Shown here: positions 2,387 through 62,211 of the stretch, piece after piece
Layout: each line of letters starts with the position of its first letter
How positions within the stretch are numbered: the first letter of the stretch is position 1
Assembly: GCA_044892525.1 (NCBI GenBank)
Contig: CM097886.1
Location: 164,040,312 to 164,104,311, forward strand
Direction: 5' to 3'
DNA length: 64,000 nucleotides
From: Schmidtea polychroa
Taxonomy: Eukaryota
The notes under the pieces: generated by a model
Told to the model about the DNA's origin: nothing
What the model saw: only the letters and a program-made list of their open reading frames with translations
Databases searched by the model: none
Translations under genes and position numbers: made by a program

Positions 2387-5039
2387 CAGGGCTGGCAAAA
2401 GCGTCGACCGCGGTCGACTGGTCGACCGCGTAGCTATCGAAAGTAGCCCGCTAGCACTATGGAAAATTGCATATAAAAATCAGTTTTTTATTTATTGAAT
2501 TTCTAACTTTATAAACATATTTAAAATAAGTTTCGATTCATATGACAAAAAAATTCCAATAAGAAACATAATATTAGTCAGATAACACTCAGAGTGTAGT
2601 AAATTTTTAGTTTGAAATTCAAATATATACAGTTAGCTAATAATCAGAATAAATTTCATGTGTTTGAACAAGTAGGCCATAAAATAAAAGCAAAACATTG
2701 ACGCTACAATCTTCGATAAGGAATAAAAAAATAAAAAACAACCAAAATAAAATGCAACAAACGTGTGTTTGTCTATTTCAATTTTGAAATCAAATTGTTT
2801 TCGTTAGAAAAATTTGAAAGCTTGAAGTATTCAGTATTGAATAATACCTGCTTATAATATTAATTTCAAAATTTTTTTATTAAAAAAAATTCTTTATAAA
2901 AGTTAACATTTTTAATTTTTGAGTATGTAAGTGTGTTTAACATTAACTTTCATATTTAATTTATTTTAGCTTTTATTATTTTCTTGTTTTAGCCCCAATG
3001 ACACAACCGGCCAAAAAAACTAAAACGTACCATTATAATACTGAATGGGAACAGGAATTTTTTTCATAATGATGAAAGATAAGTGTGTTTGTCTCATTTG
3101 TAATTCAAACGTAGCACTACCTAAAAGAGCTAACGTTGAACGACATTTTCGAACAGTGCACAAACAGTATGAAATTGACTTTCCATTACATTCCGAGGTA
3201 CGAAAAGACAAAGTCAAGCAGTTAAAGTCTCAATTAGGTGCACAACAAACTTTTTTTACGAAATTTAACTCAAAATCAAAAACAGCTACCCTAGCATCAT
3301 TCAAGGTAGTTAATATTTTGATGAAACATAAAAATCCTTTTGGAGATGGCGAAATATGGAAACAGGCGTTTGTTGAAGCTGGTGAGGTGTTATTCAAAGA
3401 TTTTAAAAATAAATCCGAAATAATGGATTGTATCAACAATATGTCATTGACGCGCAATACTAGCACGCAAAGAATGGTGGACATTAGCAAAAACTTGGAA
3501 GATATTTTGCGGCAAGATATTCGAAAATGCCGCTTTTTCTCTTTGCAATTTGATGAATCTACAGATTTCACTGATACTGCGCAACTATGCATCTTCATTC
3601 GAATGGTTTTTGATGATATGTCAACCAGAGAAGAATTATTGACTATTCTTCCAATGAAAGGACAAACAAGGGGTCAAGATATTTACAATTTATTCAAGTC
3701 TTTTATAAGTCGCACCCATTTCCCGATTCACAAGTTGGTATCAATTACCACGGATGGAGCTCCGTCTATGATCGGAAAACATGTCGGATTTGTAACACTT
3801 TGCAAAAATGATGAAGAAATTCTCAGTTTTCATTCGTATCATTGCATTATCCACCAGCAAACCTTATGCTCCAAAGTGTTGAACTCTAACTATGTAATGA
3901 ATATTGCGTTTAAAATAGTAAATTCGATACGTGCAAGAAGTCTACAACGACGTCAATTTCGAACTTTGCTTGAACAATGTGAAATTGAAAATACTGAATT
4001 ATTGTTACACGCGGATGTAAGATGGCTTAGCCGTGCAGCATTTTTAAAACGATTTAGAGATCTTTTGCCCGGAATAAAACAGTTTTTGACTGGAAGAGAA
4101 AAATTATATCCCGAACTGGAGGATAAAAGTTGGCTGATAAATCTTGCCTTTCTTTGCGACATTACAGAGCACCTGAATAAATTAAATTTACAGCTTCAGG
4201 GGAGACACAAATCAATTCTTGACATGATAACGGCAGTAAAGACGTTTAAAGAGAAACTGTCCTTGTTTGTGCGTCAACTAGAACGGGGTGATTTGAAACA
4301 TTTTAAAAACATGGAAGAAGAATCCAAAAATGCGCCAGGAATTCTTTACGATAAATATACAAATCAAATTACTACCCTTTTAAATGAATTTAACACACGT
4401 TTCGCAGATTTATCTAAAATTGCAAATATTGCTATGTTCATGTCATTCCCGTTTAATGATGTTATTGATACAGAGGAGATCGCTACTCAGATTAATGAAT
4501 TTCTGGATTCAGATTCAGCTTGCTTAGAAGATGAGATAATAGCGTTGAAAAGCGACATTTACTTAAAATCAAGAGCTACAACCGAAGATAATTTTTGGAA
4601 TCTTATTTCAGAAGAAAAATATCCAATTTTGCGGAGAGTAGTTGGATATATGTCCGCATTTTTTGGATCCACCTATCTTTGTGAATCAGCCTTTTCTTCA
4701 ATGAATGTCATTAAAACAAAACATCGATCTTGTTTGACAGATGATCATTTGGAATCATGCTTGCGGATCGCCATAAGCTCCTATTGCCCGAAATACGAAG
4801 AACTTGCTGATAAGATGCAGTGCCACGTATCAGGTGCAAGTAGTAGCAGTAAATAATATTATATTAAGATATGTTTACGTTCTAGTAAAGTATTATAAGT
4901 TTTTTTCTAATTCGTTTTGTATTTAAATAGAATAAATAGAATAACTACAGGTAACAATTGAAAATAGTTTTTCTGGTAGACCGCCAGATTTAATTTAGTT
5001 AAAAGTCGCCCGCAAGACTTGAAAGTTTTGCCACCCCTG
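2387..5039 (+). mobile_element. Full-length hAT DNA transposon (GTF2IRD2/SPIN/Charlie-like), 2653 bp
   Basis: TIRs CAGGGCTGGCAAAA / TTTTGCCACCCCTG (13/14 match). Perfect 8-bp TSD CTATATGA at 2379-2386 and 5040-5047. Internal transposase ORF. Confidence 0.97.
2998..4856 (+). CDS. hAT transposase; open for 603 aa from 3045, with the native start probably at ATG 2998 and a 1-nt frameshift in the T-run at 3058-3064
   Basis: BED-like CVCLIC..RH; FSLQFDESTD, ITTDGAPSM, HCIIHQ, VRWLSR and CESAFS motifs, so the DDE triad appears intact. Probable 5'UTR intron GTAAGT(2927)..TTTTAG(2992) ends 5 nt before ATG 2998. Confidence 0.92.
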
Positions 5040-6535: not shown

Positions 6536-9500
6536 ATCAAGCACTTACAACCTAGTACCAACAAACACATAAAAAAGATACAATAAAAGAAAATATAGAT
6601 ACAATTGATTACTGCTATCTGATACAACATCCAGTTACTAACAACTAAGCAACTTCATACACTTTTATGCAAATATGCAAATAGATAAAAGGCAAAAACT
6701 TATAAAATTTCAAAATTAAAATTTTAAATAAATTTATGTATTCCAAGGGATTCCATACGGATAACAAGCTTTGAAATGAACATAGATCAAATAAAAATAT
6801 AATTAAAAATATTATATCAAAACTTCTTGACTTTTAATAAAATTTTCTGAGTTGAGTCTTATTTTGATAATTGAAGCAGAGCACAAGAAGTCAATACCAA
6901 CTTTAATAATAATATTCCAACAAACTCAAGGAACTAATAATGAATCATTGCTAAATGTGGTTATTTCCCCTAAGATATTGTAATTTCCCTTAAAACACTG
7001 ATATTTTACCAATAAAAACTCCCTAACACATAATTATCTGCTTAAACATAGATATTCAACAAACTAAACCTCCCTTAAAAGATCATATATTTCCACCTTA
7101 ATATCCAATTGATCCTTCATCAAATGACTATAATTTTACTAATATTTCACCCAATTAATCATAAAATACCTAACTGGAGATCATAACTTCTCATTGATAC
7201 CTTACCATAATTCACCGATTTTCCTATTGATATTCAAACAGTTCTAGCCTGATAACCAAATCACAAATCCGTGCAAATTGGTGTAGGGTTGCTGTATATA
7301 TTGTATGTGTTTGTATTTTATTTTATTTTTCTGCCTTTATATAGAAGTCTGTAATTTATGTCGGCGCCCTTAATTTTTGTCCTTATTTCAAATGTGCTTA
7401 TTTTTTCTATATATAAATTAATTATTATATTAAATTAATTACTATACCGTAATACCACAAGCACTCAGAACTGCAGTATTGTTACCTAACAGCAGCTAAT
7501 TACCAATAAGCACATGAGGTGCGCACCTATTTTTTTTTAAGTATTTAAGTATTTCGTACCCTGACAGAAGTCCCACAAGTACAGCATGCCTCTGTGTGAT
7601 ACAAAAGTTCAATTTCTTCTGTATATCTGAAAGTGGCCTCAGAAAATTGGATATTAATTTTGTCCAATGAGAATCAAGAATTTCATGCCAGCACGCAATT
7701 AATATTTTAAAAAAAATTTCTAATAAAATTAATCTGACACTTGATAAAGAGAGCCGAAAAATCACCACCAAACACAAAAAAATTATTAGTAAAAAATTAA
7801 AATTCAAAATTTTATTTAACTAAAACATTTCAATATTATTTTTCAGTTTCAAAGTATTTTTATTTCTTTTAATTTGTACAATTATGCTTAACAATTCTGG
7901 ATTGGGAAATTCCACTTTTATTATCAGCTTATCTATTAACATTGTCATTTTCATCTGATAAATAACTTTTATATTTGAGGCAATTCAATTGATTATCTAG
8001 TTGGAAATATTAACTATCAATTGTAAACTTTTTAAGTTGCTACAATGTTTAGTTTTTTTAATATAATACTGCTAGGAAACTTTATAATTTGATTGTAAAA
8101 TGTCATTTATCTTTTGGTATTCATTAAAAAATTGGGATAAATTACAAAATAAAACGCAGTATTGTTAAAAACTTTTTCTGTTTTATTGTTCATCGTAGAA
8201 GATAACTTTTTATTCTAGCAGTTAATTAGAAACACCATAATAAAATTTTGAAATAAATTTTAGCCAAATAGAAATATTTAAACAAATATCAAAAAAAAAT
8301 ATTATTAATTTTAATAATAACTTTATAAAATGTAATCTCAAAAAGGATTAAATTAGTTTTCATATTTAATTATTAATGATGTTTAAATAATTGATTGTTG
8401 GTACTTTTATCAAACGAGAAATTGTAATGAATAAGCTTATGACGGAAATCTAAACTTAAAATAATTTGGATTTAACTAGCGACCACATTGAAAATAAAAA
8501 GATCAACGCAAAATTTATAATCAACTAAATCGTTAATGTTATGTTTACCAAAATTATGTCTTGATATGTCAGTCTAAACATCCGACAAGATGATGAACGA
8601 GAAGACATTGTGCAAGATTCCATTGTAAATAAAGCACGTGATATGAGATTGATGGAAATATTGTTGACGAAACCAGAAAAAAAATTGAAAAACGGATAAC
8701 TGGCGAAAATTTTTGAGAGTTATAAAAATGGAAACAATAGAACCAAATTTGTTAAAGTTGTCGGTCATACAATATATGCTAACATGAATTTGAAATGGTA
8801 GATGAGGGATCAGGTGAATTCCCAATATTTTGGATATATACCACAACCAAGAAGTTTATCAGAAGAGCTAATTCGTTATCATGAATAAATGAGAAACGAA
8901 AATCACATAAGTAAATGTCTTTGTTCTGGGGAAGGGTTAAGTCTTTGTTTATTGGTCTTTAAAACATTTTTGACGATGACTCATAGTTCTTTGTTCTCCA
9001 AAAGAACCATGGTTCATAATATCTTTATTCCCGCGGGCTCACAACTCACTTGAATGCCTAGGTCAATTAATATATACGGCACCCTTCTACTTTAAAGTAG
9101 ATTTTTCTATACTCTTTGACTTGAATCTCAATGTGAAGGCCTGTAATTTTTCACGACACATCTAAAAAATAATAATGTATTTTATGAAATGAGTGAGCCT
9201 GTTTTCAAGTCTTAAAATGGTCGGTTTTCACGATTTATACGGGAAAAATTAAAAAAATATTTATTGTAGAAAAGTTTACTGAATTTCTCGATAAGAAAGT
9301 CAGAAAAATAAAATATTTTTTTAATATATTTTAAATTATCTGCAAAGTTATTTAACATTTTATTCATCTTAAATTTCATTTATCTTGATTTAATTTTCGA
9401 CTATAAATCAATATTTTTTATATTTAACCTAAATTTTTGACAATATCATTTGTAGAGACAATTAACTCGAATAAAGAATTTATTCAAATTAACATTGTGG

Positions 9501-9815
9501 TGGGTTACAGGTACTGAAAATCTTTACCCCCTCATGCTGTTTCCAGCGCAACCCAGAATACAATTTATAGCTGACCACTTGATACCCGTTGAGCAATCAA
9601 CGTTGGTACTGTATCAAGGGTTTGGGCACTAGCAAAAAGTGAGCATGCCTAGCATACTATAATTGTCTAGTACCCACGAGGGTTCACGGACTGCCGATAA
9701 AAGGCCTATGTCCGTTTTTCTTTAGTCCCCATTCCGAAAATCGACATTATGGCAAATTCGAAATGCCCAGATATGAATACACCCGTAATATTTATTCACA
9801 ACACAAAATCAAAAC

Positions 9816-10276
9816 TCATAGGATTATAGTCGGTTCTTTCGGTGCAGACTCTGACGAAGTAGCCTTGAGCGTCACTTGGGCCTGACAGGCTTGGCGGATT
9901 TTCGCCCGCGCCGCTTTACCCGGCCGGATCTTCTTCTTCGAGATCTTCGACGCTGCGCATTCCTTTCGTTGGTGGAGTAGCTCATTCATAGGGCGGATCC
10001 TGGAGATGACCTCTCGATCAAGGTTTTGTTGGTGCGACTGGACCTCCAGCTCTCTCACTCTCAGGCGGAGGGCCCGCAACTCAACTTGATCTTGGGCGCT
10101 CTGGAGTTGCAATTGAGTGATTATTTTCATTCGCTTCTTCATCTCTGTGGGCGGGAACCAGGTGCTCTCGAAATTTCGGCAATGGGCCTTAAGTCGCATT
10201 AACTTGGCCCGATATTCTTCTACCTGTTGTTGCGCCCTCTCTCTGTCTGCTCTCATTTCTTCCAGGAGTTTTAACA
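9816..10276 (-). CDS. Antisense terminal exon 2 in LTR unit A: coiled-coil protein with a basic C-terminus (~163 aa if spliced to the 11304-11274 exon)
   Basis: Open 153-codon frame in a GC-rich island. Preceded by CTAAT branch point (10296-10292) and TTATTTCAG acceptor (phase 1). AATAAA on the minus strand ~20 nt after the stop. Confidence 0.6.
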
Positions 10277-10729
10277 CTGAAATAAGTAAAAATTAGTATC
10301 TTTTCGCACTTTCGTCAAGTATCCACGTTATATCGCTAACACCATTGTGGCATAAGCTGTAATCTCCCCGTCGCAGCCCGCATCAGTGCGCACCTAAACC
10401 CCAAATCCGGTCCTATGAGTTTCACTAAGATGTTATGAGGTTGGTAATAATAGTCAACATTTAGAGGAATATCAGTATATACGTATACAATAAGGGAATC
10501 CAAACAATTAGCTTAATATTAATAAACAAAACATAAAAGAATAACACTTTGCACATAGGTTAAAAGAAAATCACATACAGAATTGCATGACAACCACACT
10601 TTACACTGCGATGATAACGAAGTCGAGACATGCTAATCATTATAGTGAGTAAGATCATCATTATCAATTGTATCGGAAAGCGAGTCCACTCGAAGTCGTA
10701 TCACAAGGTGCGGATATTTGGCCCGGCGA

Positions 10730-11304
10730 TCATCTTGGTTGAGTTGGGCGGGTTTTCCGCGGACGCCCGCGTTTTCTCGCCGGTTCCGGTTCCCGTCGAG
10801 AAGTTCTTAGGCACTCCAGTCCCCGGCGAAGAGCTGCGATCCGCTTTGGGTGGCACTGGGCTCGGGCGTAGCCGTCGATGTCTTCCAACTCGCCGGCCAG
10901 GACTGATGTTTCGAGCCGGTCCAGTCGGTCCACTGCCTCCTTCACATTGTCGAAGGCGTCGCTCAGAGCCAGTGACGTATAGTTAATATACGGTTCGATC
11001 TTCGGGGTCACTGGAACCACATTCTGGTAGGTCCAATCGTGGATTTTGTACCATATCCACCGGGACCTTAGGCGAGCAACCTCTGCGTCCTCCCGTAATC
11101 GTACGACTTCGTCTGTCTCCTCGCGAGTTGGTTCGCGGCTTGAATCGGAGGATGAGGGTCCGGCCTGTGCGTTCCATTCCATGGTGTTGGACATATCTGC
11201 AATGATAAAAGAGGCATTTAGAACGTCTCCTGACTCTTCCACTACGGGGTTATTTCAATCCGTCTGAATATACCTTCAAAGTTACATTCTAATCTGATGT
11301 GCAT
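10730..11304 (-). CDS. Antisense gene in LTR unit A: exon 11304-11274 spliced to exon 11196-10730, ~165 aa with a C-terminal AT-hook
   Basis: ATG 11304, AG|GTATAT donor (phase 1), 77-nt intron, TTTTATCATTGCAG acceptor (phase 1). Open frame ends RKRGRPRKTRPTQPR (core AT-hook RGRP). Confidence 0.6.
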
Positions 11305-12737
11305 TTCGCCCAATCGACTATAGCCTTTGCATGCGGTTTAGTTTAAATTATGAGCCACTTTTCGTAATCGCTTTTATACCCCCTTCTACTAGCTTTAGTC
11401 GACTCTACCACCTTGCTTTAGGTTCGCGTACTAGAAATCCGAGTTTTATCATCCCGGTTTTCACTGGGTTGATAGTCCAAATGGATGACTTAACCTTAAC
11501 GAAATTTTTACGAAATAACTGTAAAGTCATTCTCGTCAATTTAATAGTCAATACCATAAAAGGGTAATTTATGAATTAAATCCAAAAATTAAGTATTAAT
11601 AAAATAAATCAAACGTCGCTACTACAGGTTGAATAATTAATATAAAAAAATTTAATTTATATTTTATAAATTCAATATTAAACTATCTGTTGTTTAAGTT
11701 AATTAAACAAAAATATTTTATTTGTTAATTTGATGAGTTAATTTTCACAAGGAAATCCGTTATTTATGGAGTTATTAGAATTTGGCTGCTCTAACCCACT
11801 ATGGGAAGTGGATGTCGCGAAGGGTATGAATTTGTATTCAGCTCTTTGTGAATCCCTGACCATAGTGGTTGTAAGCGGCTCTTTCCTCAGCTGGTGCTCG
11901 ATAGTAAGTTGAAGTTTTTATCTGTCGTAGTTGTATAATTTCAGGAATGGGTCTCTAATCCCTCGGTGTTTTGTATTTCAATCATCCACCGTATTGGAGC
12001 TATTACTGTTTAATGGAATCTAAAGCATGGCTATACTCCCAATTCGTGGCCATTTAGGGAAAGATTTTTGGAATTTCATGGTTGTTTCATGATTTTATTG
12101 ATCTATGCTACATGAATTTAAAGTGAAAATTGGGACTCGAGTTTTTCTGAGTTGTCCCCTTCTAGACATTCCTTAATATTACCAGTAAGATTCCTTTTGT
12201 GATTAGAATGGTTTTGTAAACAAAATTTTTGGATTTTATTAAATACATTTTCGCTTTTGTTAATTCCTATTTAAGTAATTTTGTTTGACGTAAGTTAATA
12301 CTTATCGAGTAATTTTGTTAACTCCTCATGAGAACCTATATAGTTAGAATCACGACTGGTTATTATTCCTTACCTTTGGTCCTATTGAGTGGGTATTCCG
12401 ATTCAGATCGTCATTTTCGGGGACTAGGCTCCGTGGCTTACACGCGATCTACTTCTGGGGTAACAAGGGTTAAATTCGCATGGGTGAGATAGGTTTCATC
12501 GAAAGATTAGAGTTTCGACTGACATGGTCGATGGCGATTGGCTCGTGTAGGGGAGAGTAGGTGCCACCTATTCGGTCAGTTAGGAGTAGTGCGTAGGGGG
12601 TAACCCTTGGTTTGCAGGGTTGTTACTAATAATAGAAGCGGTATTATTGGTCTAACTCTGAGGGGAAGAAAAAAAAATCAATACTGTCGGTTTCGAATTT
12701 TCCTATTAATAGTAACGTGCTATTGATAATCATGTTA

Positions 12738-12738
12738 C

Positions 12739-12773
<35 letters not shown>

Positions 12774-13060
12774 TTAAGGGTAATAATAATAATAATAAAA
12801 ATAATAATAATAGTAATAATGAATTAATAGTATTAGTAATGATAATAATAATGGTAATGATAATAATAATGATAATAACAATAATAATTTTTAATAATAA
12901 TGATTATAATAATAGAAATAGTAATAATAGTGATACATTACCAATAATAATAATGATAATACTAATAATAATAATAATAACGATAATCATAATCGTAACA
13001 TTAAAGATAATACAATAGCAATGCTAATAATGGCAATAACGATAAGGTTAATCCTGATAA
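12738..13060. repeat. Degenerate (AAT)n tract inside LTR unit A
   Basis: Pure AAT run grading into near-variant triplets (GAT, AGT, ACT, AAC, CAT). Confidence 0.9.
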
Positions 13061-13436
13061 GAAGTGTAAGTTTTATGCAGTGGGTAATAAATGTATAACT
13101 CAGAGGGGGGGGGGTGTTCATGAAATTATTAGTTTACCATTTTACAGACTAAGTATATATTGAATAGGTTACTTTCAGATTTTAGTACAATAGATAATGA
13201 AGGTAGGATTCAGGGGGGATGTTTATGAATATTTATAAATTAGTAGTTCCATATCATATAAGCTAAATATATATAAAAATAAGTGAATCTAGGACAATTA
13301 GGTAAATATATAACATAGAGGCTAGTTACGTAGATTTATCATTTTGACATTTTGTAAGTTAATTATATATCAAAATAAATTAGGATTTTTAGGTACTGGA
13401 CGGTAAGTATATAATTCAGAGGATCGTCTTATGAGA

Positions 13437-13882
13437 ATTCGTAAACTATCATTTTTACATTTTATAAGTAAATATAGATATCAACATAAGGTAGGATATT
13501 TATGCATGAAATTTTATAAGCTATCATTTTAAATATTTTATAAGATAAATATATACCTCAGAATAAGTTAGGATACTTATGCATGAAAATTTACTATCAT
13601 TTTAATATTTTATAGGATAAATATATACATTAGGATGAGTAGGGTATTTATGAATAAAAATCTACAAACTATCATTTTAATATTTTACAGGATGAAGATA
13701 CACATCATAATAAGTTAGGATATTTATGAATGAAAATTTGCAAATTATCATTTTAATATTTTATAGGATAAATATGCATCAGAATGAGTTAGGATATTTA
13801 TGAATGAAAATTTACCAACTATCATTTTAATATTTCATAAGATAAATATCTATACCAGAACCAGTTAGGATATTTATGAATC
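13437..13882. repeat. ~75-bp minisatellite, ~6 copies, inside LTR unit A
   Basis: TAGGATATTTATGAAT..CTATCATTTTAATATTT..GATAAATAT unit recurs at ~13492, 13569, 13640, 13716, 13790 and 13866. Confidence 0.85.
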
Positions 13883-14903
13883 GGATAATAATTATATAAT
13901 TCAAAGAACCATTTATGAAACCAGGTAAGTTGTACATATTCCAGTTGGGTTATAACTATGAACTGGTGATTCGACGACTTTACGACATTGGTAAGGAAGA
14001 TTGCCTTTTAAATTTAATCTGCAATTTCGTACTGATTGTAATGACACACTCTCTATGGAGATAACGAGAAAAGGGTGGTGAGGATAATGATAATAATTCT
14101 GGGGGTGATATTACTATTAAGGCAAAATAGAATTCCAATACCCATAAGGTAAGGATAAAGACTTGTAATTAATATATCATTGAACGTGATTAGATTATCT
14201 TTAAAATCGAACATAATTATGAATAATATCAATAAAATCTAATAACAATAGTTAATATTTAGCATATTGAATGATAGTTTGTGCAATTAGCCGACTACTT
14301 GATAACTTTTGTGATAAATTGAGTCTGGGATCTTTCCCGTTTAGCTGTTCCTAATGATGTATTTCCTATAGAATATTTGAGTGTGTACTTTAGATGTGTC
14401 GTTTACCGGAAGGTCGAATTAATTAAAATTTTCCTACTTTCCCGATTCAACTGAATACGGTACGATAGGCCTTATTGTAATATGTTTCCCGCGATTACTT
14501 GCCCGCATTTTATTTCGTCCGCATAGTCCCTGCGACTATGCCAACTACCTGGATGGATTTACCGCCCTACTCCTGGTTAGAAACCATTTGTTCGTGGCGA
14601 CCTTCCGGTTAAGAAATAAAAATGAAATTTAGTGCATGTGGGGTCGTAGACCCGTATCGTGCATGTAAAATAATTATTGGAAACAAGGCTGATCAGCGTC
14701 GTGGATGTAATCCGCTCACGACGACGCTGGTCACTCTTGTTCTGTAATAGTAGAATTAAAAAGTCAACAGGTTAAAAAATATAATAAACATAATAATAAT
14801 GAAACACAAATAAAAATGAAATTAATCAACAATCCTTACTTTCAGTGTTGTTCAAAGCTTCGATAAAAATTTTTGGCATACAAAAATATCTGAATTGTGA
14901 CGA

Positions 14904-14922
14904 AAATGCGTCGGTATATATA
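14904..14922 (+). promoter_or_regulatory. Conserved TATA-like core of the LTR family A/B
   Basis: AAATGCGTCGGTATATATA is identical at 14904-14922 and 32635-32653, 650-730 bp from the 3' end in both units, consistent with a U3/R boundary. Confidence 0.55.
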
Positions 14923-16591
14923 CCTATTTTGTACACGTGTATGTATTGATGCATTAAAACAAACTCGAATTCTTTTTATTCCAGAACTTTCTATTTTGTA
15001 ATTTTGATATTTTTAATGGCGATTTTTGCGTCATAATTTTTATTTTTATTTTTAAAATTTTATTTCCTAAATATTTTTTGCTAATTTTTCCTCCATGATG
15101 GATTTGGAACGGTTCCAGAACATTCCATATTACTTTTAATTCAATTTTTATTTTTAACTGATATTTTACGAATTTCTTTTTAAGAAATTTTATTTTTAAT
15201 ACTAATTTATTTATTTTTCTAAATTTTATTGTTTAAGGTAGCTTTTATGATGGTCATCGCCATTTTTATGGAATGTTCTGGGTTTTTCTGGAATTTTTTG
15301 CTATTTTTACCATCTTTTAAGTTATTCGAGTTTGTTTTTTGTAACTCTGTGTTTATTTGGCTATTTTGAGTTAGATTTTGCATAACTTCTTGCTTTTGTA
15401 TAATTTTATTTAATTTCTGTGTTTTAGGTTTTTGTTGTTTCTCTTCTAATTATTATTGTTTATTTGGTGTAGCTTTTCAATATTTAACTATACTTTTTGC
15501 TTTTTACATGTTGTGTAACTACGCATTTCCGTCACAATTAGAAGTTTGGGTCTAGAAATCAGTTCTAGCCCAACAATTGCAGTAAATAATTATCATATCT
15601 TCTCCAATAGTCAATATACCGACGAAAGCACGAACACTTGATCTGGAGATTGTATGAAGATTGTTGAAGATCTTGACCATCATCATAGAGATCTAATAAG
15701 ATAGAGAGCTAATAAGACGAAGGTTTCTGTTTCTTGAATTTCTAGCATATTTGATTTATTGATTTTGACTCGATTTGATGATTGCAAAGTTAAATAATTC
15801 ATTGTTTCTTTTTATATTGAATTTGATGATTTTTGAAAGAGACGGGATTATTTAAACAATGGTATTTAGTTTAATTTTAATTTAATTAATTTAATAATAT
15901 ATTTTTAGTTCAATTATTAAATTGATAAAAGTGGGAGTCAGAAGCACTACATAATTTTTTTTACTTTTTCCTTTAAAAAGTTTTAAATTAATTTTTTTCT
16001 TTCTGTATCCCCAAAATTTATTCTGTATCAAACAACTTAAATATCTGAAAATTGAGTCATATTCAAAATAATAACGAATTTTTTACAGAAGTTTTTTCTG
16101 AAAATTTATTATATTGATTAATGCACAACGTGAAAAAGCCAGGGGTTGTTTATTTTAAGAAAACATGAACATAAATACAAATTTTGCATTACTTTAACAC
16201 AGAAAGTTCTAATTTCCAGTTAATAATGATAATAACTTGGATTATTTTAGCCATTTTTACTCAATACTTTTTAAAGTTATTGAAAAATATAATAGCTGTT
16301 ATACAACGTAGGACACAAGAAGTTGCCACAGTTGTATATATCACTGGTTTCAGCAAATTTGGCAAGGAAGGGATATTTTAAAGATAAATAAAGTCACAGC
16401 AAAATGCGAATTGTCAGTATAACGGGTCATAATAAAATTTTGGTTCGAATTTAGATTGAAATATAATAATTATAATAATATTTGAATATATAATAATTAT
16501 TTATGTTATCATTAGTTAATTTCACCATAGATTTTATAATTTATCGATTCTATTATATCTGTAATATCTATAAGTTATTAAATAAGGCAAA

Positions 16592-24523: not shown

Positions 24524-25456
24524 CTATAAATATTCATAGTCTTCGAAAGATTTCCTTGCGATTTCCTCTTCCTGTGCCATCTTACTTTGTTGTAATAAAA
24601 TCATTTTTAATTCATCCCTCCCAATTTTCCCATCATGATCAAGATCCCATTGGCCTAAAATTACTTCCTGGTAAAATTTCATTTTTTCTTCATCATATGA
24701 TTCGCCGGCCAATTCTAAAAGGTCTTTCAGCAATCCTTGTAATTCTTCATTCTCAATTGTTCCATTTTTATCCGTATCGTATTTCTTAAATACTCTATCT
24801 ATGTCGTAGCCAGTTATTCTGTTTACGTTTTTAAAAAGTGGTTTACAGAGATAATTTTCTTTAACGGGTAGGAGTCGAGCCATTTCACTCAATTGTAACT
24901 TACCATCACCATTTTCATCAAACAACTGTAGAATTGTATATGAATATTCTTCCAATTTTTCATCGGATATATCTTTAACATTGGACTCTGAAATCAAATA
25001 CCTTAAAAACTCTTTTAATTCATTTGCTTCAATGTATCCACTGTTATCACTATCAAATTTGCGCCATATCTTCATAAAATCGACACTAGATTCCAATGGA
25101 TTATCTCTTCTAAATAGCAAAAGAAAATTTTCGTCAGTTGGTAGCATTTGAGCAAGTTCTCCAATTTCAATTTTGTTATCTTCGTTTTCATCGTATGCTG
25201 CCATGAAGTCTTCTTTCATATCGCTCAAAGCGCTATCTGATATAATTTCTGATCCAATTGAACCAGGAACCACACTGGAAATAAATTCCCTTAGAAAACC
25301 ATCAAGTTCTTCACCTTCAATATACCCATTACCATCGGTATCGTAATGACACCATACCTCAAGAAATTGTTTTGCAGTGAAATTGGTCCAACGCCTTGTT
25401 TTGCTATCTCGGAATTTTGAAAGGAAATTTTCAACTTCATTTTTTGCGTCAGACAT
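24524..25456 (-). CDS. Cbp53E: Calbindin-32/calretinin/secretagogin-family hexa-EF-hand Ca-binding protein, 310 aa, single exon
   Basis: Six canonical EF loops (DTDGNGYIEGEE, DENEDNKIEIGE, DSDNSGYIEANE, DENGDGKLQLSE, DTDKNGTIENEE, DLDHDGKIGRDE). The N-terminus resembles Drosophila Cbp53E as recalled. Confidence 0.9.
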   Translation of the reverse strand: MSDAKNEVENFLSKFRDSKTRRWTNFTAKQFLEVWCHYDTDGNGYIEGEELDGFLREFISSVVPGSIGSEIISDSALSDMKEDFMAAYDENEDNKIEIGELAQMLPTDENFLLLFRRDNPLESSVDFMKIWRKFDSDNSGYIEANELKEFLRYLISESNVKDISDEKLEEYSYTILQLFDENGDGKLQLSEMARLLPVKENYLCKPLFKNVNRITGYDIDRVFKKYDTDKNGTIENEELQGLLKDLLELAGESYDEEKMKFYQEVILGQWDLDHDGKIGRDELKMILLQQSKMAQEEEIARKSFEDYEYL

Positions 25457-25963
25457 AATATTGAACTAAAGTTTAATAGTCTAGTAAAAAAATTAGTTGG
25501 CTTCTTTTATAATAAATTTCCCCTGGAAACACACCTTGCTGCACAATGCAATCGAAGTTTAATAATTCATTAATCAATACAAATCAATGTTTGTCGCTAT
25601 TATTTAGGCAAGTGAATTGTAAAATTTTAATATTTTTATTTAAAGTGTTACATATAATTTATATAAAAAATTATTTATCAATAAAAATTATACTATTTTA
25701 AAGTTTAATTATTTTTAATTGTTCCTATTTTTTATTTTTTCAGCTTAATTATTTTCAAGGAAATTCTCTAAATTTCTTCTTCCTTAAATTCTCTGTATAT
25801 TTTAAAAATACTAAAATAAAATTTCAATAAGATTCCGTATAATGAATTAACTTTGTAATGCTTGTTTGAATATTTCAAATCTATCTTAGTTATTTAATAT
25901 AGATTTCAAATAAGTAAGCATGACTAAAAGTGTTTTAAATTAAATTTTTATATATTATAAGAT

Positions 25964-28147
25964 ATGAGCAAATTAGTATATTATAAATTCAAGTCTGAAC
26001 TAAATCAACAACAAATTCCATTTGAAGGTTCAAGTATTTCTGTGAAAGAATTAACCGATGCTATTCGAAAGAAGCATTCCAGTTCTCACTACAATTTGGT
26101 TGTATATTTGAAGGATATTATATCTAAAGAAGAAAGAGGTTTAATAAAATATCTATCCTCATTTAGTTTTTTTATTTTTATTTTACAGTTTGTTCTGAAA
26201 GTGAATTAATACCAGCTTTTTCTAACGTAATTATCAAGCGATTACCTTTGGCCGATCAATCTAAACATAATCAAATTAAAAAAATCACGTATGGAAATTT
26301 TACTATTTCAGTTGGGAATTTACTTTTTCTTTAGAAACCCTGAAAATTTTTCTAAAGTGGATCCATACAAAAATGTTTGTTTTATAATTATAAAAATTAT
26401 GTTTTTAAAATTTTCAATTTTCAGGCACATGAAAAAGAGTCTTTAAATATATTTAAAAGAGTATGTGCTTTTTGAATTATTATGACTATAATTTATTTAA
26501 TTTAGATAAATTTAGATTCATCTTCAATGACAGAAGAACAAAAGGTTGATACTGTAATTGAATCAGCTGCTACAAAGTAATTTTTTCCTTAGAATTTCAT
26601 TGAATTAGCATTATTTAGTTATAGAATATTTGGTAAGAAAAATCCATGTGGACAGCCTCCATCTTCATATACTTGCAACAAATGTAATATTCCTGGCCAT
26701 TGGATAAATAATTGTCCAGGAATTCCAGATAAAAATGGGAAACTCATTGATTCTCGACAAGTAAAACGTCCAAGTGGAATTCCAGTTTGTGGATTGGTAG
26801 AAGTCGATGAAAACACTCCAAATAGTTATTTAACTCCCGATGGTCGATATGTGGTTAATATTAAAAACCGGTAAAAATTATGCATTATTTTTATTATTAT
26901 GGAATTATAGATTTTATTTTAATTTGATTTTGATTTGTTATAAAAATGTTACTAAAAATATCTTTTTACGTGATTGGTTGTTTTAATTAATATTTTATAG
27001 CGATGCTCTTTTGAAAGGAAAGAAAGATAAGCGGCCGTTTTCGATTGAAGAAAATCCTCCATTAGTCGAGCAACCGAAAAATGAAATTCCAAAGAGCATG
27101 GTTTGCAAATTGTGCTTGAATCTAATAACAGCACCGACGAAAACCGGTTGCTGTGGCAACACGTATTGTCGTAACTGTATCACCGATCACTTATTTGATC
27201 CTGAAAACTCCACACCGATGCATCAATGTCCGAATTGTTTTGGGAAAATCGATAAATTGGATGAATTAATCGACGATTGTGAACTGGAAAATCTCATACA
27301 TGATTGGAAAATTAACAAATTGTCCAAAATTGAATTGACAAAGCCGATAAATCTCATGAAATTGGAAGCGAAAGTCCCAACAGAAATGACAGATGATGAT
27401 TTATTGAATGAGATATTTACAACGGAAAACAAGGAAAATGATCATCCGGCAGCCGATTTGGAACTTATCAGCCAATCGGTTGGGAAATCAGATAATTTGT
27501 CACATAATCCGAATATCGGATCGGTAAATCCCACTGTTGATCAATTGTCATCTGATAGGGCAACTGCAGAAATGATCCGGAAATTGGCCAGTGCCGGCTG
27601 TGCCGAGGGAATAGTTGAGCTGATGAAGTCGAATCCCAAGGCAATCCAATTGATCCAAGGACTCGTCAACAGCCTCGTGCCGGAAAATATCAAAAATGCC
27701 AATTACAGACAAAAAAGTCGCTCGAGACCCACCGAAGCTCGCAACCAACGAAACGAATCCGATCATCGGTATCGAGACGAATCGAGAAATACCTACCGGA
27801 AATCCCGAAAACCAATTGGTGATCGACAATTCCATAAATCATCGAGACGATACAATAGAGAAGACGATAGTAAATATCAAGGCCCACGTAGAAATGACCA
27901 ACTGAGTAGAGAAGAACAAAACAACAAATCTGATTCCTGGGAACAGTACAACCAGAGAGACAGTTATTATCAGCGATCTATTATTGACAACTGCTCGAAT
28001 TCATCAGATCGGCGACGACATGACAATCGACAGATGGATAAGCAATATCGCAAACGTCGGGCAAGTCACATCGAATCACCAATCAGAATCACCAGTGAAT
28101 CCATTGACCGAAATTCTAACAGGCGAAGTAAAAAATCGAAAAAGTAA
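25964..28147 (+). CDS. RBBP6: RBBP6/Mpe1-family E3 ligase (DWNN, zinc knuckle, RING), 7 exons, 606 aa
   Basis: Exons 25964-26138, 26189-26288, 26335-26374, 26425-26460, 26506-26576, 26619-26870 and 27001-28147 join in frame via GT-AG introns of 50/46/50/45/42/130 nt (1821 nt total). DWNN VYYKFKS..VIIKRLP; PPSSYTCNKCNIPGHWINNCP; RING CKLC..CCGNTYC..C..CPNC. Confidence 0.9.
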
Positions 28148-29175: not shown

Positions 29176-29988
29176 CTAATCAGTTTTTTTGTTTTCTAAT
29201 TTCATTTGATCATCAGATTTATTCGTGAATCCTTTTGTTGAAATAAGTAAATCATTCAACTCAAAAGATTGAACTATATTTTCCCAACTGAATGTGTATT
29301 TTTGAAGGACTTTACCAGTAAGATTAATAGCTGGTCGGCGCGTAGCTTCTTTACCGTTTTTAAAAAGGATGATTGTTGGTAAATTAATTGACCAATTTGT
29401 GGTATCAATTTTATATTTTGTTGCTGCTTCATTGTTTTTACTGACATCAATTTTACCGAATTTCAGAAATTCATTTCCGTAATATTGAGATAATTCAGCG
29501 AAAATCGGAGCCAAATTAATACAAGCTGGTGACCAGGCATTATAAAATGCAATCAACCAAATTGTCCGTGTATCTCTAAGCAATTCATCTTTCAAGCTTC
29601 CATCATTAAAATAAATTACTCGATCTTCACCTTTATAAATTGGCTGAGATATAAACGATACTTGCATAATCCATAAGAAACCGTAAATAATTGCAAATAA
29701 AATGTTTTGTTGGAAAAACATGAATAAATTAGCAAACTTAGCAAACATACAAAAATGGGATACATAATTAACAATTGTCGAATAACGCTTACTTCTCAAT
29801 GTTACCATTGAACATAAGAAAATTAAAATTTGGTATTCATTAAAATCAATATGACAAGTAGAATACATGTAACTACAAATCGGTTCAAGTGTTTTTGTAA
29901 CAAAATAAACTGAAATTAGAAAATAACTTACAATAAAATATGGATGATACAGTTTCTTTAGTTCTCGTTTTAAGTGAGTACTAACCAT
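29176..29988 (-). CDS. TMX2: Thioredoxin-related transmembrane protein 2, 270 aa, single exon
   Basis: N-terminal hydrophobic segments followed by a thioredoxin fold with a non-catalytic SxxC (AWSPAC); FGKIDV and LPTIILFKNGKE..RRP motifs; C-terminal KKTD di-lysine-like tail. Confidence 0.9.
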   Translation of the reverse strand: MVSTHLKRELKKLYHPYFIVSYFLISVYFVTKTLEPICSYMYSTCHIDFNEYQILIFLCSMVTLRSKRYSTIVNYVSHFCMFAKFANLFMFFQQNILFAIIYGFLWIMQVSFISQPIYKGEDRVIYFNDGSLKDELLRDTRTIWLIAFYNAWSPACINLAPIFAELSQYYGNEFLKFGKIDVSKNNEAATKYKIDTTNWSINLPTIILFKNGKEATRRPAINLTGKVLQKYTFSWENIVQSFELNDLLISTKGFTNKSDDQMKLENKKTD

Positions 29989-31755
29989 GGCTGTTTATTG
30001 ATGATAAAAATAACAAATATATTTAACAAAAAATCAAATGATAGTTAATTTGACTTGATATTTTAAACAAAACTTGAATGAAAAAAAACTACTAGAACTT
30101 ATTATTTTTATAGAAATTTGACTTCATAAATTCATTTTTTAAAAATTTTATATTGCAATAACAAAACTTTAATTTTTTAAAATTTTAAAAATGATTTACG
30201 TGATTATAAATAATACTACCAGATAGTCGATATTGTACGAGAAGACAATTCATAATGTTATCTATTAAATAAAAAATTACTTAGAACAAAACTATCAAAT
30301 TTGTCTTATATAATAGTGGTATGCAAATCGTGGGTTACATAATTCAAAGAAATTTATTCGGCAATTAAATATACATGGTTTTTCTTCAACAAGTATCGGG
30401 TACCAGTAAAATAGTGAAATGAAATTATATTATTAATAAAAATAGAACTATTTTTTTACGAAACACTTTCAAAAAATTATGTGTTTTATTCATACTTCTA
30501 ATAAAGTAAAAACATAAGCGCTAATCCCAGAAAGAATTTTATTTTAATTATGTTGACGATTAAAATATGTCTATTGTCTATCCAAGAGTCGCAACAAAAT
30601 TTTACTCAAAATAAAAATAGTTTGCGCACTACTAATCTAGTGTATTTATTATATAACACTGATAGATAATATTAATATTTGTTTGACTTTGAGGTTAGAA
30701 ATTTCTGATAGTATCAGTTGTTCAATAGTTCTTGGTTAGAAACTCAAATATATATATATATATATATCTTTTCTGCAAAGGGCCAGATTTTTACTTTTAG
30801 GTCTTAATCTAAAAAAAATAATGAGGCTCCTTCTTCATGTTTTTAATTGCATTTAAAAGACAAATTATTTACTGTATGGAGACTAAACTAACAATTATTT
30901 GAGTACAACGCCTTCCATGTTTCTAAATGCAACAATCCTTTATATTCTTAAATTGACAGAGATATATATTTTTGTGTAATTGTATCATGTCTAATAAAAA
31001 TTTAAACAATTTTTTGTTTGAAAGCAATTTAAATGCTCAAGATAATTATGGTGCTATACTAATCGTGTAATATAGATTAATATCGTAGATTCTATCGTTA
31101 GTTAAAGATTAAAATTTCCTTCACGCTTTCAAACGATTAAAAAAGTAAACAAGCTATGAAAGAATGAATTTCAAATGCTTTTTACAGGGTAGCATATAAT
31201 AATTTTCTCAGTTCAGTTTGTTTCTACTTCTCGAAACCCGTTACATAAACAACGTTGGTAATTTATCGAATGGTTTAATGTTAGTAAAAAGTGGGCTCAT
31301 TCTAATGAATTGTAATTACTAACATTCTCATGGATCCACAGACTATTTATAAAAGATATGTGTCCGATTTACTTCACAGTCCCTAGTGTCGTTTAACGCT
31401 CAACGGAAAACAGGAATTCTAAAAGAATTAGATTTACACGAATCAGATAAATATTATTAAACACAAAAATAAATTATTTACCACAATTTTAATTCACTTG
31501 TAAATGAACATAAGTTGTTCCCCATTTCAGACTGAAACTATGGATATAATTGCCCACAATATGTTTTATATTATTCAGTAAACAGGCTTAAAAATTTAAC
31601 AACAAGCTTTAACAATCTTTAAAGTTCTCATCAATTTTATTTATATTTGATTACACATTATTACAATGTTAAAATATTTTATAAATTACTTTTTACAATT
31701 ATTATTCCGAAAAACCAAATTAATTTTGTTGACGCTATAAATTATTGCAAACTAC

Positions 31756-33380: not shown

Positions 33381-34618
33381 TTACATTAAGATAAAGTAAA
33401 AAAAATCGCATATTAATCAACTCAAAATTAAAATAATTATTTGTCAATGTAACTTCAATAAAATAAACTGGAATTAAACGAATATCGATTATTTTATAAT
33501 AATTTAAAATGTAAATACTCCATTTAATAATTTTATATATCCAAAGTTTGCATGCATTTTTTATTGTGCTGTGTTCGTGTTAAATTTAGTTTTTTTTACC
33601 ACTTTCTCAATATTTATAAATGCTATAAATTTTGAAGCATAAAAATTCAACACAAATGGTAAGTTTGTGTTTCCAAAATACACCGCATTGCATCGGATTA
33701 TGTGTTGGCAGGATAAAGTTATAACTGTGAACTATTGGCAAGAATTTATAAAAAATTATGGAAATTTCACATTTAAATTATTTAAAGGAATTTAATGACA
33801 AAATTATTTCAAAAAATGTAAGTTATTTTTAATTTTTAAATTTATTAAATAATTAAATAAATATAAAAATTTATAAATTGTCCATAATTTACTATTTTAA
33901 CAAAGATTTTTTTAAATTTTGTATTTTAAAATTTTATTTAAAAAAATATTTTAAAATATTGTGTTTGTATGTATCATATAATATAAATTATTGATTTTTT
34001 ATATATATAGATGTGATTTTCCGTGAAATCAGGTGTATAGGATTTTTTCAGTGTACCTTAAATTCGGATATTTGACATAAACGCATAACTCCGTAACTTT
34101 CTTTTAATTGGTTTAATTTTTAGCTAATCAAATTTAAGAATTATGTAGATATAATTAACTGTGCTGGAGTAACAGAATATTTTAACAAGTTTTCAACAAA
34201 TGAAAATTTTTTCCGATTTTTGTTTTAAAATGTGTTTAGTTCAAAACTTTGGACTTGTTGATTTTATTTTACAATGAATGATTTTGTTTACAATATCTCC
34301 AAAATTCTCGTTTCATCAATTTTAAATTATGTTATATCACTTATAAAATGTTTGGGAGATTAAAATTTTTTTTTCAAAATTACATTATTAATAAGTTAAT
34401 ACGTTATTAACTAGACATTCATTTGAAATTTTAATTAAAAAAATTCTTTTTAAAAATCAAAATTTTCATAAAAATGTCCAAATATATTTTACACTTTATA
34501 ATATTGTCAATAAAAAATATGCGTAAAAATTTATAAACATATTTTATAAACATATTATTAAAAGAATTTAATTAAAAAATCGTTTGAAAAACAGAAAATA
34601 TTAAAATTTTCACTGAAA

Positions 34619-35854
34619 ATGTTCGGCGATGTACAAAATCACGCCGATAACTTATCCGAGATCAAAAGTTCATTCAATTACAAATCCATCAATCTCAGTG
34701 ATAATTATGACAAATTAATTTATGTCTTTACGACAACTATTATAGCTCTCTGCTTCTTTTTCTCAGTAAATTACAATTATTTCTACATTGACTTTCAATG
34801 TAAAACGCAATCGGTGCCGTTTTCCTTTCAGTTTGTTGTCGAATATTTCCCCATATATTGCTGGACAGTGGGCACAATTCCAATAAATAGTGTTAATGAC
34901 ATTCCACAAACTGATGAAGGCTGGGATAAATTAGATAAGATCAACCGTATAACTTATTATCAATGGATTCCGACAATGTTGGGTATTATGTGTTTGGTTT
35001 GCTATTTTCCGAGAATGTTGTGGAAACGAATTTCTTCAAGAAATGCTTCAGCTGACCTAATTTCTCACTTGGATAACATCAATTTGCTGTATGAAGAAAA
35101 ATCTGAATCGGAATTGCTACTTGTGGCAAAAAGATTCCATGACAGTAACACATTATCGAAAACTATGGCTTATAGTCCCTTAATGAAATTCCTAAAAAAA
35201 TATATCCCATATATTCCATTTAGTGGATATTGCTCAACATATTTCGTCAGTTGGTATTTTATCATCAAACTCCTCTTTATTGGATCTGGATTTTTCAATA
35301 TTTGGATAATAAAGGATGTCATAGCATTTCCCCATCATGGATTTTATGATTTCTATTTCGAAGTTTTCGTCAAAATATTTGATCTAGATTATTGGCAAAC
35401 TTCTCTTTATTTCCCTTTCCAAACCATTTGTTACAATAAAGATCTAAAACATATTGGTGGAAGTGCAAGAACATTTTCTCAATGTATTCACCAACAGAAT
35501 ATGAATTATCGAATCATTGTCACATTTTTGAGTGTTTGGTCAATATTTTCCATTCTCATGACTTTGATTGGTCTATTTGTTTGGATCAATCGGATTTGCT
35601 TTAGAGTGTCGAGGAGAAGATTCGTCAAAAAATTATTAAAATTAAATCATAAAATTAATTTAAATAATTTAAATGATGAAACGAAAGATATTTTAAAGAA
35701 ATTTTTGTGTGAATATTTTAAATACGATGAGATCTTCATGCTTCACATGCTGTCAGCAAATGCTGGAGACGTGATTGTCGCAAGGATTGTGGGAATTTTG
35801 TGGAAAGAATTTTATCGAAATGAAATGGATCAAAAACTGAATAAAACCGCCTAG
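34619..35854 (+). CDS. Innexin (gap-junction protein) paralogue A, 411 aa, single exon
   Basis: Four TM segments, YYQW-P signature, two Cys in each extracellular loop (FQC..YCW; FP..TIC..QC), cytoplasmic LH..AGDVIV..I..LW motif. Confidence 0.93.
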   Translation: MFGDVQNHADNLSEIKSSFNYKSINLSDNYDKLIYVFTTTIIALCFFFSVNYNYFYIDFQCKTQSVPFSFQFVVEYFPIYCWTVGTIPINSVNDIPQTDEGWDKLDKINRITYYQWIPTMLGIMCLVCYFPRMLWKRISSRNASADLISHLDNINLLYEEKSESELLLVAKRFHDSNTLSKTMAYSPLMKFLKKYIPYIPFSGYCSTYFVSWYFIIKLLFIGSGFFNIWIIKDVIAFPHHGFYDFYFEVFVKIFDLDYWQTSLYFPFQTICYNKDLKHIGGSARTFSQCIHQQNMNYRIIVTFLSVWSIFSILMTLIGLFVWINRICFRVSRRRFVKKLLKLNHKINLNNLNDETKDILKKFLCEYFKYDEIFMLHMLSANAGDVIVARIVGILWKEFYRNEMDQKLNKTA

Positions 35855-45779: not shown

Positions 45780-47015
45780 CTAGGCTGTTTTATTCAGTTT
45801 TTGATCCATTTCATTTCGATAAAATTCTTTCCACAAAATCCCAATGACCTTGGAAACAATCACGTCTCCAACCTTCGCTGTTATCATGTGAAGCATGAAG
45901 ATCTCATCGCATTTAAAATATTCATACAAGAATTTCTTTAAAATATCTTTCGTTTCATCGTTCATATCATTCAAATCAATATTACGATTAATTTTTAAAA
46001 ATCTTTTGACGAATCTTCTCCTCGACACTCTAAAGCAAATCCGATTGATCCAAACAAATAGACCAATCAAAGTCATGAGAATGGAAAATATTGACCAAAC
46101 ACTCAAAAATGTGACAATGATTCGATAATTCATATTCTGTTGGTGAATACATTGAGAAAATGTTCTTGCACTTCCACCAATATGTTTTAGATCTTTATTG
46201 TAACAAATGGTTTGGAAAGGGAAATAAAGAGAAGTTTGCCAATAATCTAGATCAAATATTTTGACGAAAACTTCGAAATAGAAATCATAAAATCCATGAT
46301 GGGGAAATGCTATGACATGCTTTATTATCCAAATATTGAAAAATCCAGATCCAATAAAGAGGAGTTTGATGATAAAATACCAACTGACGAAATATGTTGA
46401 GCAATATCCACTAAATGGAATATATGGGATATATTTTTTTAGGAATTTCATTAAGGGACTATAAGCCATAGTTTTCGATAATGTGTTACTGTCATGGAAT
46501 CTTTTTGCCACAAGTAGCAATTCCATTTCGTAATTCTCTGGAGATAGCAAATTGGTTTTATCCAAGTGACAAATGAGGTTAATTAAATCATTTTTATAAG
46601 TAATTCGTTTCCATAAAATTCTAGGAAAATAGCAAACCAAACACATAATACCCAACATTGTCGGAATCCATTGATAATAAGTTATACGGTTGATCTTATC
46701 TAATTTATCCCAGCCTTCATCAGTTTGTGGAATGTCATTAACACTATTTATTGGAATTGTGCCCACTGTCCAGCAATAGTTCGGGTAATAATCTATATCA
46801 AACTGGAATGAAAACGGAACAACTGTGGTAAGACATTGAAAATCAGTGCTGAAATAATTATAATTTACTGAGAAAAAGAAGCAGAGAGCTATAATAGTTG
46901 TCGTAAAGACATAAATTAATTTGTCATAATTATCATTGAGTTTGATGGATTTGTAATTGAATGAGCTTTGGATTTGGAATAGATCATTGGCATGATTTCT
47001 GACGATTCCAAACAT
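45780..47015 (-). CDS. Innexin paralogue B, 411 aa, single exon
   Basis: Same motifs as paralogue A; 54 of 411 residues differ by manual alignment (~87% identical). Confidence 0.93.
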   Translation of the reverse strand: MFGIVRNHANDLFQIQSSFNYKSIKLNDNYDKLIYVFTTTIIALCFFFSVNYNYFSTDFQCLTTVVPFSFQFDIDYYPNYCWTVGTIPINSVNDIPQTDEGWDKLDKINRITYYQWIPTMLGIMCLVCYFPRILWKRITYKNDLINLICHLDKTNLLSPENYEMELLLVAKRFHDSNTLSKTMAYSPLMKFLKKYIPYIPFSGYCSTYFVSWYFIIKLLFIGSGFFNIWIIKHVIAFPHHGFYDFYFEVFVKIFDLDYWQTSLYFPFQTICYNKDLKHIGGSARTFSQCIHQQNMNYRIIVTFLSVWSIFSILMTLIGLFVWINRICFRVSRRRFVKRFLKINRNIDLNDMNDETKDILKKFLYEYFKCDEIFMLHMITAKVGDVIVSKVIGILWKEFYRNEMDQKLNKTA

Positions 47016-47071
47016 TTTTCATAAGTTTATTGAGAAATGTTTATTTTTCAAACGAATTAATTAAAATTAGT

Positions 47072-61980: not shown

Positions 61981-62211
61981 TGAGGAAGTTTCATGATGAA
62001 AAAATTTTTAAATTGAAAATTTTAAAAATTAAAGTTTAGATTAATTTTTAAAAAAACAAAATAAGAAGATATTTTAATTAAAAATATCTTCGTAGAAAAT
62101 TTGTTTAAATAAGAAAGATTAAAGAAGATATAATTTGATTTTGATATTTATTGAAATAAAATTTATGGAAACAAAAACTGATTTTAATGTTTTACAGGAT
62201 GAACCTCCTAA
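61981..62211 (+). repeat. Putative 5' LTR (~231 bp)
   Basis: Starts TGAGGAAGTTTCAT and ends ATGAACCTCCTAA (imperfect inverted ends; terminal AA instead of CA); lies directly before the PBS. The second LTR is outside the window. Confidence 0.55.

Follow-up and report, generated by a model that had tools for sequence, protein, structure and literature searches.

What kind of gene unit is formed by two open reading frames which lie close together on the minus strand, in a GC-rich island of otherwise AT-rich planarian DNA, and how is that unit oriented in the retroelement that carries it? The frames (designated ORF A and ORF B) are located in a stretch of 64,000 nucleotides of the Schmidtea polychroa genome, referred to below as the window; the surrounding genome assembly comprises 781 Mb of AT-rich sequence with four very large contigs. 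In the original prediction the pair was described as an antisense, alternatively spliced cassette for two proteins, located inside the U3 of a 6-kb LTR and resembling HBZ of HTLV-1 in layout. The boundaries of the LTR were set by comparison with three longer genomic loci, and it was found to be a solo LTR of 6,078 bp with TG..CA ends and a 4-bp target duplication (Table 1). The 6-kb LTR therefore stands, and the placement in U3 has become one of two options.

Paired LTRs of this kind are found elsewhere in the genome 30-35 kb apart and are 98.8-99.9% alike. The internal region between them contains, in order, gag, CCHC knuckles, MATH, a viral fusion glycoprotein, PR, RT, RH, IN and ankyrin, followed by TRAF and BIR frames, and a RING frame precedes gag in full elements. 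The available text of PMC6431247 describes Burro/GYPSM1 as giant planarian Gypsy elements of ~30 kb, and gag with CCHC knuckles, MATH, an env-like fusion protein between gag and PR, the Gypsy order PR-RT-RH-IN, ankyrin, BIR and accessory frames are common to that description and to the ~30-kb element studied here. On the basis of size, domain order and domain content as compared with the published description, the LTR is assigned to a Burro-type giant Gypsy element. The gag frame is open and similar for 103 codons ahead of its first Met in both families of element described below (L034:7253 minus, L145:1504), and the 3' LTR has no preceding polypurine tract (L032, L147), with an identical 160 nt preceding both LTR types.

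The first 17 bases of the LTR have 2,708 exact matches in the genome, compared to 387 exact joins of LTR and primer site, which as a rough comparison suggests that most copies are without an internal region. There were 527 candidate copies of the 1.5 kb that carries the two frames, of which 40 (95-100% identity) were scored, and both frames are still open in many copies. There is a second abundant LTR type (family 2), of 4.3 kb, and the internal regions of the two types are close relatives (82-93% identity in those leader stretches that were compared); the LTRs themselves are ~83% identical from the LTR start to just past a candidate splice donor and then diverge. The LTRs are also mosaic (L154-L170), the type of leader, the interior and each of the two ORFs having assorted independently; in one example ORF A is 65% and ORF B 96% identical to those of the window. 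A 76-bp minisatellite and a TAA tract lie within the predicted intron of the LTR (window 13431-13881 and 12739-12993).

Elsewhere in the window there are frames which we take to encode a hAT-type transposase-like protein (603 aa, 3045-4856, with a fragment of a similar one at 49983-50405) and, presumably, two innexin-like proteins without introns (34562-35854 and 45780-47018), the latter pair being in inverted orientation and 92% alike over 1,266 nt. Three long single-frame genes appear to us to be host-like, namely those for a multi-EF-hand protein (24524-25465), a RING-like protein with an RS-rich tail (26987-28147) and a thioredoxin-like membrane protein (29176-29994). A 473-bp tandem repeat occupies 47082-48419, and at 62123-64000 there are frames for the gag and protease of another Gypsy-like element, of a type which is interrupted by a Burro insertion at another site (L036-L041).

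The strand of the cassette was read from full elements. In these the polyprotein and all internal frames lie on the strand of ORF A and ORF B, as does an 18-nt primer site past the 9498 end, which is complementary to the 3' terminus of a host tRNA gene (called as tRNA-Pro(TGG) by ARAGORN) plus CCA. Because gag-pol and the tRNA-Pro primer site share its strand, the cassette is sense, in the last quarter of the LTR, and the antisense claim is refuted. The analogy with HBZ fails for the same reason, since it rests on antisense coding: according to the part of PMC10186651 available, a small helical regulator at an LTR promoter is common to both systems (spliced in HBZ, predicted to be spliced here), but HBZ is antisense and a bZIP protein, whereas no bZIP was among the Pfam matches at E<=1 for either alignment. 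Genes for tRNA-Pro(TGG) also form a tandem array with a 475-bp period from G000:C1:130901009 (L172), and the motif has 2,190 matches genome-wide.

Table 1. Coordinates of the solo LTR and of its observed and predicted features (window positions unless a locus is given)
Feature	Position	Strand	Remarks
Solo LTR, Burro-type giant Gypsy element	9498..15575	- (element sense)	matches both ends of each of three longer genomic loci
Target-site duplication ATTG, copy 1	9494..9497	.	
Target-site duplication ATTG, copy 2	15576..15579	.	
Candidate core promoter	14914..14939	-	CACGTG box then TATATATAC, first base 14922; aligned in 16 rows, both LTR types; function predicted
Candidate coding leader exon	14840..14879	-	ATG 14879; 13 codons + 1 nt, phase 1; donor GTAAGG 14839; splicing predicted
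Conserved hairpin block just inside predicted intron; candidate export/packaging signal	14510..14748	-	
Mini-exon of the original prediction	11274..11304	-	unsupported as exon; ATG often starts a short closed frame
ORF A exon	10730..11196	-	acceptor AG ends 11197; own ATG 11194; 154 aa; RLRxRxIW helix, second long helix, C-terminal AT-hook
ORF B exon	9816..10276	-	acceptor AG ends 10277; phase 1; 152 codons; first ATG 10256; long helices, basic tail
AATAAA after ORF B	9791..9796	-	kept in 16/17 family-1 rows; AATAAT, non-canonical, in 4 family-2 rows
Structured 3' end of LTR (U5 or R-U5), then 18-nt tRNA-Pro(TGG) primer site in full elements	9498..9725	-	
Internal accessory frames checked	L144:8521, L146:6022/6534/8138/9396, L147:1124/1971		

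The details of sequence given in the original prediction were all present (ATG 11304, the 31-nt exon MHIRLECNFE with AG/GTATAT, the acceptors at 11197 and 10277, RKRGRPRK and the AATAAA at 9796-9791), as were the two stop-free frames (165 and 163 aa if counted with that exon) and the GC island (58% GC in ORF A and 52% in ORF B). Comparison of sequences establishes both frames as real genes under purifying selection across subfamilies. They occur in hundreds of genomic copies and are open far beyond chance, with stops in 12 of the 150 best matches to ORF A and 16 of the 150 best to ORF B, best-scoring lists which favour intact copies. The median dN/dS (pairwise Nei-Gojobori, restricted to pairs with dS>0.2, which are not independent) was 0.19 for ORF A (489 pairs; 34 copies out of 40 loci, after four short copies, one with a shifted tail and one duplicate were dropped) and 0.18 for ORF B (199 pairs; 23 copies out of 35 loci, with 12 broken or short ones dropped). 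Common stops and frameshifts with a dN/dS of ~1 had been named in advance as evidence against the cassette; stops proved to be few in the best copies and the ratio, at ~0.19, was not ~1. The dN/dS of 0.4-1.8 for ORF A in the five nearest copies, where dS is very small, is as expected from decay after insertion.

The frames are recognisable in family 2, in which ORF A encodes 121 aa (27% identity, with RLRxRxIW and RGRP kept) and ORF B 155 aa (41% identity). Of the A frames of >=150 aa, 33 out of 36 contain RGRP, which is invariant in a 27-row alignment that includes family 2; in ORF A this core is flanked by K/R, as in an AT-hook, and the Pfam AT-hook score is 12.3 against a cut-off of 17.4 bits, with 13 of the 27 members matching at E<=1. 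Structure prediction gave two long helices and a short third for the ORF A product (24-58, 72-113 and 116-123), with disordered ends and the AT-hook terminal (mean pLDDT 68, pTM 0.25), and long helices for the ORF B product (2-39, 42-108 and 120-140) with a basic stretch at ~91-130 (pLDDT 80, pTM 0.34), global confidence being low in both cases. A complex prediction for the two proteins scored 0.01, which counts neither way. The earlier description of an AT-hook protein accompanied by a helical or coiled-coil protein with a basic tail thus holds.

An origin of the frames as captured fragments of gag or of a host gene was also considered. Among 1,270 frames from the window and two elements, profiles of both proteins matched LTR copies only, with no likeness to gag or any other internal frame, and no host parent emerged from database searches. 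For ORF A no homologue was returned in the database search and no usable match in the ESM Atlas; three matches to its profile among 1.8 billion proteins were rejected as artefacts of repeat proteins, in which weak repeats had been summed. ORF B has one orphan relative (P0001, 81% identical). No related loci were found in metagenome or viral contigs, and Foldseek returned no match at E<=0.001 for either model, so that beyond the sub-threshold AT-hook no known fold or family was found for A or B, and neither predicted function is backed by such a match.

In the original prediction both frames were fed by the mini-exon at 11304, which in the window's copy is indeed open and in phase with both acceptors, and its ATG is present in 30/30 near and 22/34 divergent copies. 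On the other hand, 22 of the 30 nearest copies have GC at its donor, the remaining 8 having GT, and an open phase-1 exon was found in 0 of the 34 divergent copies, 18 of which have a GT. Taken with the sense orientation of the cassette relative to gag-pol and the primer site, these counts make an antisense, HBZ-like cassette starting at this exon scarcely credible. The ATG opens a closed frame of 9 codons in 16/34 divergent copies (L077-L108) despite variable sequence, and one of 20 codons in the window's subfamily (11304-11242 minus); possibly this is an upstream frame of an RNA which either stays unspliced or has a start of its own.

A candidate first exon lies 3.6 kb further upstream. At the end of the first 780 nt of the LTR, which are common to both LTR types (~83%), a CACGTG box is followed by a TATA (14922), an ATG (14879) and a GTAAGG donor sequence (14839), the candidate promoter lying upstream of the end of an A-tract-rich stretch of 75% AT at the LTR start. 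The leader is 34, 37, 40 or 43 nt long, and thus phase 1, in 25 of the 30 copies scored (one of these 25 has an internal stop). Among the 100 matches listed out of 208 in the genome, 93 are phase 1; 79 of those listed are of 40 nt, 5 of 37 and 9 of 43, the remainder being of 41 (6) or 35 nt (1). Both acceptors are likewise phase 1, that of ORF A having two bases between AG and ATG in 35 of 40 loci and that of ORF B reading AG/TG in 35 of 36. Family-2 ORF B has Leu at the position of the first Met of family 1 and, being without a Met near the acceptor, has to be started in phase 1 from further upstream; every one of the family-2 leaders scored (L144, L147, L148, L149 and L151) was phase 1. An LTR-borne, selected module for two proteins, in which a single short first exon would serve two phase-1 acceptors, is accordingly retained from the original prediction, with a different exon. 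A donor at 12373 was considered and rejected as it is not conserved, and the family-2 LTR contains a candidate in-frame exon of 36 nt (TGCAG .. GTAAGC) between leader and ORF A (L144:5933-5968).

Spliced-leader trans-splicing occurs in flatworms, and the acceptors might be trans-splice sites, the leader at 14879 being merely an upstream frame. In each of the seven internal accessory frames checked, an AG precedes the ATG by 0-3 nt, in phases 0, 1 and 2, an arrangement which resembles the resolution of a polycistron and which suggests a large set of spliced subgenomic RNAs. There is also one subfamily which tolerates a leader that does not fuse: it is of 41 nt and phase 2, its frame ends in TGA, and both acceptors remain phase 1. 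This leader was present in 11 of 17 loci that had been picked because the length of their leader was odd, and both A and B were seen in 9 of these 11; neither a compensating acceptor shift nor an internal exon was found when sought in this subfamily. As the leader cannot fuse here, translation of A and B would have to re-initiate at the ATG of each, which speaks against a leader that is strictly fused. We nevertheless consider trans-splicing very improbable, as the strong cis donor is conserved and matched in phase to both acceptors, and as family-2 ORF B is without a Met near its acceptor, where an AUG supplied by a trans-spliced leader would be out of frame.

In contigs, spliced joints were sought on the acceptor side. 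Among the loose ends listed, contigs of runs X1, X2, X3 and X6 showed no joint at either acceptor over window 9400-11800, and those of X1, X6, X7 and X8 showed none over family-2 L144:5860-8760; none of these runs is recorded as RNA, and the leader exon lies outside both stretches. The X1 contigs also cover the spacer between A and B, while those of X6 and X7 cover only the last ~300 nt of the LTR onward, a pattern to which we give no weight. Two exact gapped patterns built from family-1 motifs gave 0 matches to intron-less copies in the genome.

A sense, spliced and self-contained layout is likely on this evidence. Transcription would start ~25 nt after the TATA at 14922, and the 40-nt leader would be joined to 11196, giving by arithmetic a product of 168 aa, or to 10276, giving one of 166 aa; the spliced RNAs would end at the AATAAA at 9796. 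Since promoter, leader, both acceptors and AATAAA fall inside one LTR, solo LTRs could be complete two-gene units, and the short A and B RNAs might be produced from either LTR of an element or from a solo LTR.

Where the full-length RNA begins bears on whether the cassette belongs to U3. Most likely it would arise from the same promoter, unspliced and reading through, which would place the cassette in a very long R/U5 and would require the strong donor to be left unused, a difficulty which in Cer1 is overcome by CERV (PMC10309623). A shared promoter also implies strong-stop DNA of ~5.4 kb and read-through of the poly(A) signal, which is unusual. The same two sense genes might instead lie in U3 under their own promoter, in which case genomic RNA would begin immediately behind the AATAAA at 9796 and R would be short, with a structured U5 of ~270 nt. 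Strong-stop DNA of 5 kb would thereby be avoided, and the last 230-280 nt of the LTR fold well and covary in the manner of an R-U5 leader: 9498-9780 folds better than shuffled sequences (z = -3.8), with double changes in 8 of 55 pairs, most of which amount to a single change that separates the two families. In RSV and MMTV, moreover, the poly(A) signal precedes the cap site, as it would here (PMC12789967, in the part available). Against this, no TATA or initiator common to both LTR types is present near 9830-9780, and the internal accessory frames need an upstream donor, yet no GT(A/G)AG donor was found at a shared place after the PBS in the two leaders scanned. We regard the U3 arrangement as rather unlikely and slightly prefer a shared promoter, with the cassette in a long R/U5.

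A second structured region was observed just inside the predicted intron, where 14250-14760 folds better than shuffled sequences (z = -3.1); its hairpin block has 86% column identity, with a double change in 4 of 47 pairs (weak covariation). Pairing of this block with the stretch before the 3' LTR was no better than for shuffles (-36.0 against a mean of -35.1 kcal/mol), and Rfam gave no match anywhere in the LTR. The basic tail and long helices of predicted B, and the hairpins with weak covariation in the predicted intron, make B a candidate for a factor of the Rev/Rex/CERV type, to which no homology was found.

On balance, the reading we find most probable is that a Burro-type LTR carries two conserved sense genes, probably spliced from a short 5' leader to either acceptor, of which the AT-hook protein is predicted to act on the AT-rich LTR and the basic coiled-coil protein on unspliced RNA. 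The particular functions, A on AT-rich promoter DNA and B on unspliced RNA, are proposed more tentatively. By analogy, A and B would be the early, fully spliced regulators of a switch like that of complex retroviruses, A as a Tas-like DNA-binding activator or chromatin tether and B as a Rev/CERV-like factor working through the hairpin block, which would be kept only in unspliced RNA; solo LTRs may supply both in trans. The two proteins might alternatively be real and sense, with the host (chromatin, silencing or cell survival) as their target in place of element transcription and export. The element does carry other host-pathway domains (RING, TRAF, MATH and BIR), and Burro RNA is up after smedwi-2 knock-down in the part of PMC8532177 available, so that counter-silencing would pay. 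We consider a host target improbable, as no host homologue or interaction domain was found for either protein, and the lone AT-hook and the basic tail point to nucleic acid, the LTR start being 75% AT.

LTR-borne accessory frames and spliced regulators are already-known kinds, and by analogy the closest precedents are MMTV sag, foamy-virus tas/bet and CERV of the Cer1 element, not HBZ. In the available part of PMC12789967, MMTV sag is, as here, a complete sense ORF inside an LTR (the whole ORF lying in U3), its splicing being established where ours is predicted, and there are extra promoters; the LTR studied here differs in having two frames with a candidate promoter, leader exon and poly(A) signal in one LTR, and its products are predicted to be nuclear whereas sag is a membrane protein, with no sequence similarity found. 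The foamy-virus genes tas and bet (same source, same part) are similar in being two early regulatory genes under one promoter and include an LTR transactivator, an activity only predicted for A, but they are driven by an internal promoter in env, so that a solo LTR would be without the unit. For ORF B the working model is CERV of C. elegans Cer1, a Gypsy-type element, which in the text available from PMC10309623 is an orphan spliced accessory protein with a leucine zipper and a candidate NLS, needed for export of unspliced RNA; CERV, in contrast, has 517 aa and five exons, lies in the internal region and shares exons with gag, and the Cer1 LTRs are of ~490 bp. The available text of PMC6431247 makes no mention of genes inside the LTRs of Burro/GYPSM1, and in the literature searched no whole two-gene unit inside a Gypsy-type LTR and no genes inside Burro LTRs were found, although Grohme et al. 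2018, supplements and Repbase entries may show the frames.

Solo LTRs are normally regarded as gene-less promoters. It is conceivable, if doubtful, that each Burro LTR, solo copies included, is a self-contained, alternatively spliced two-gene unit encoding a DNA-binding activator and an RNA-export factor, and that the numerous solo LTRs together regulate the family in trans from dispersed sites, possibly also AT-rich host chromatin. The exact junctions predicted and the two orphan proteins bear on the question of how splicing is avoided in a 30-kb RNA whose splice sites are strong. If the solo copies are expressed, a giant retroelement under piRNA control, in an animal that serves as a stem-cell model, would have regulators in the style of complex retroviruses which outlive the element itself.
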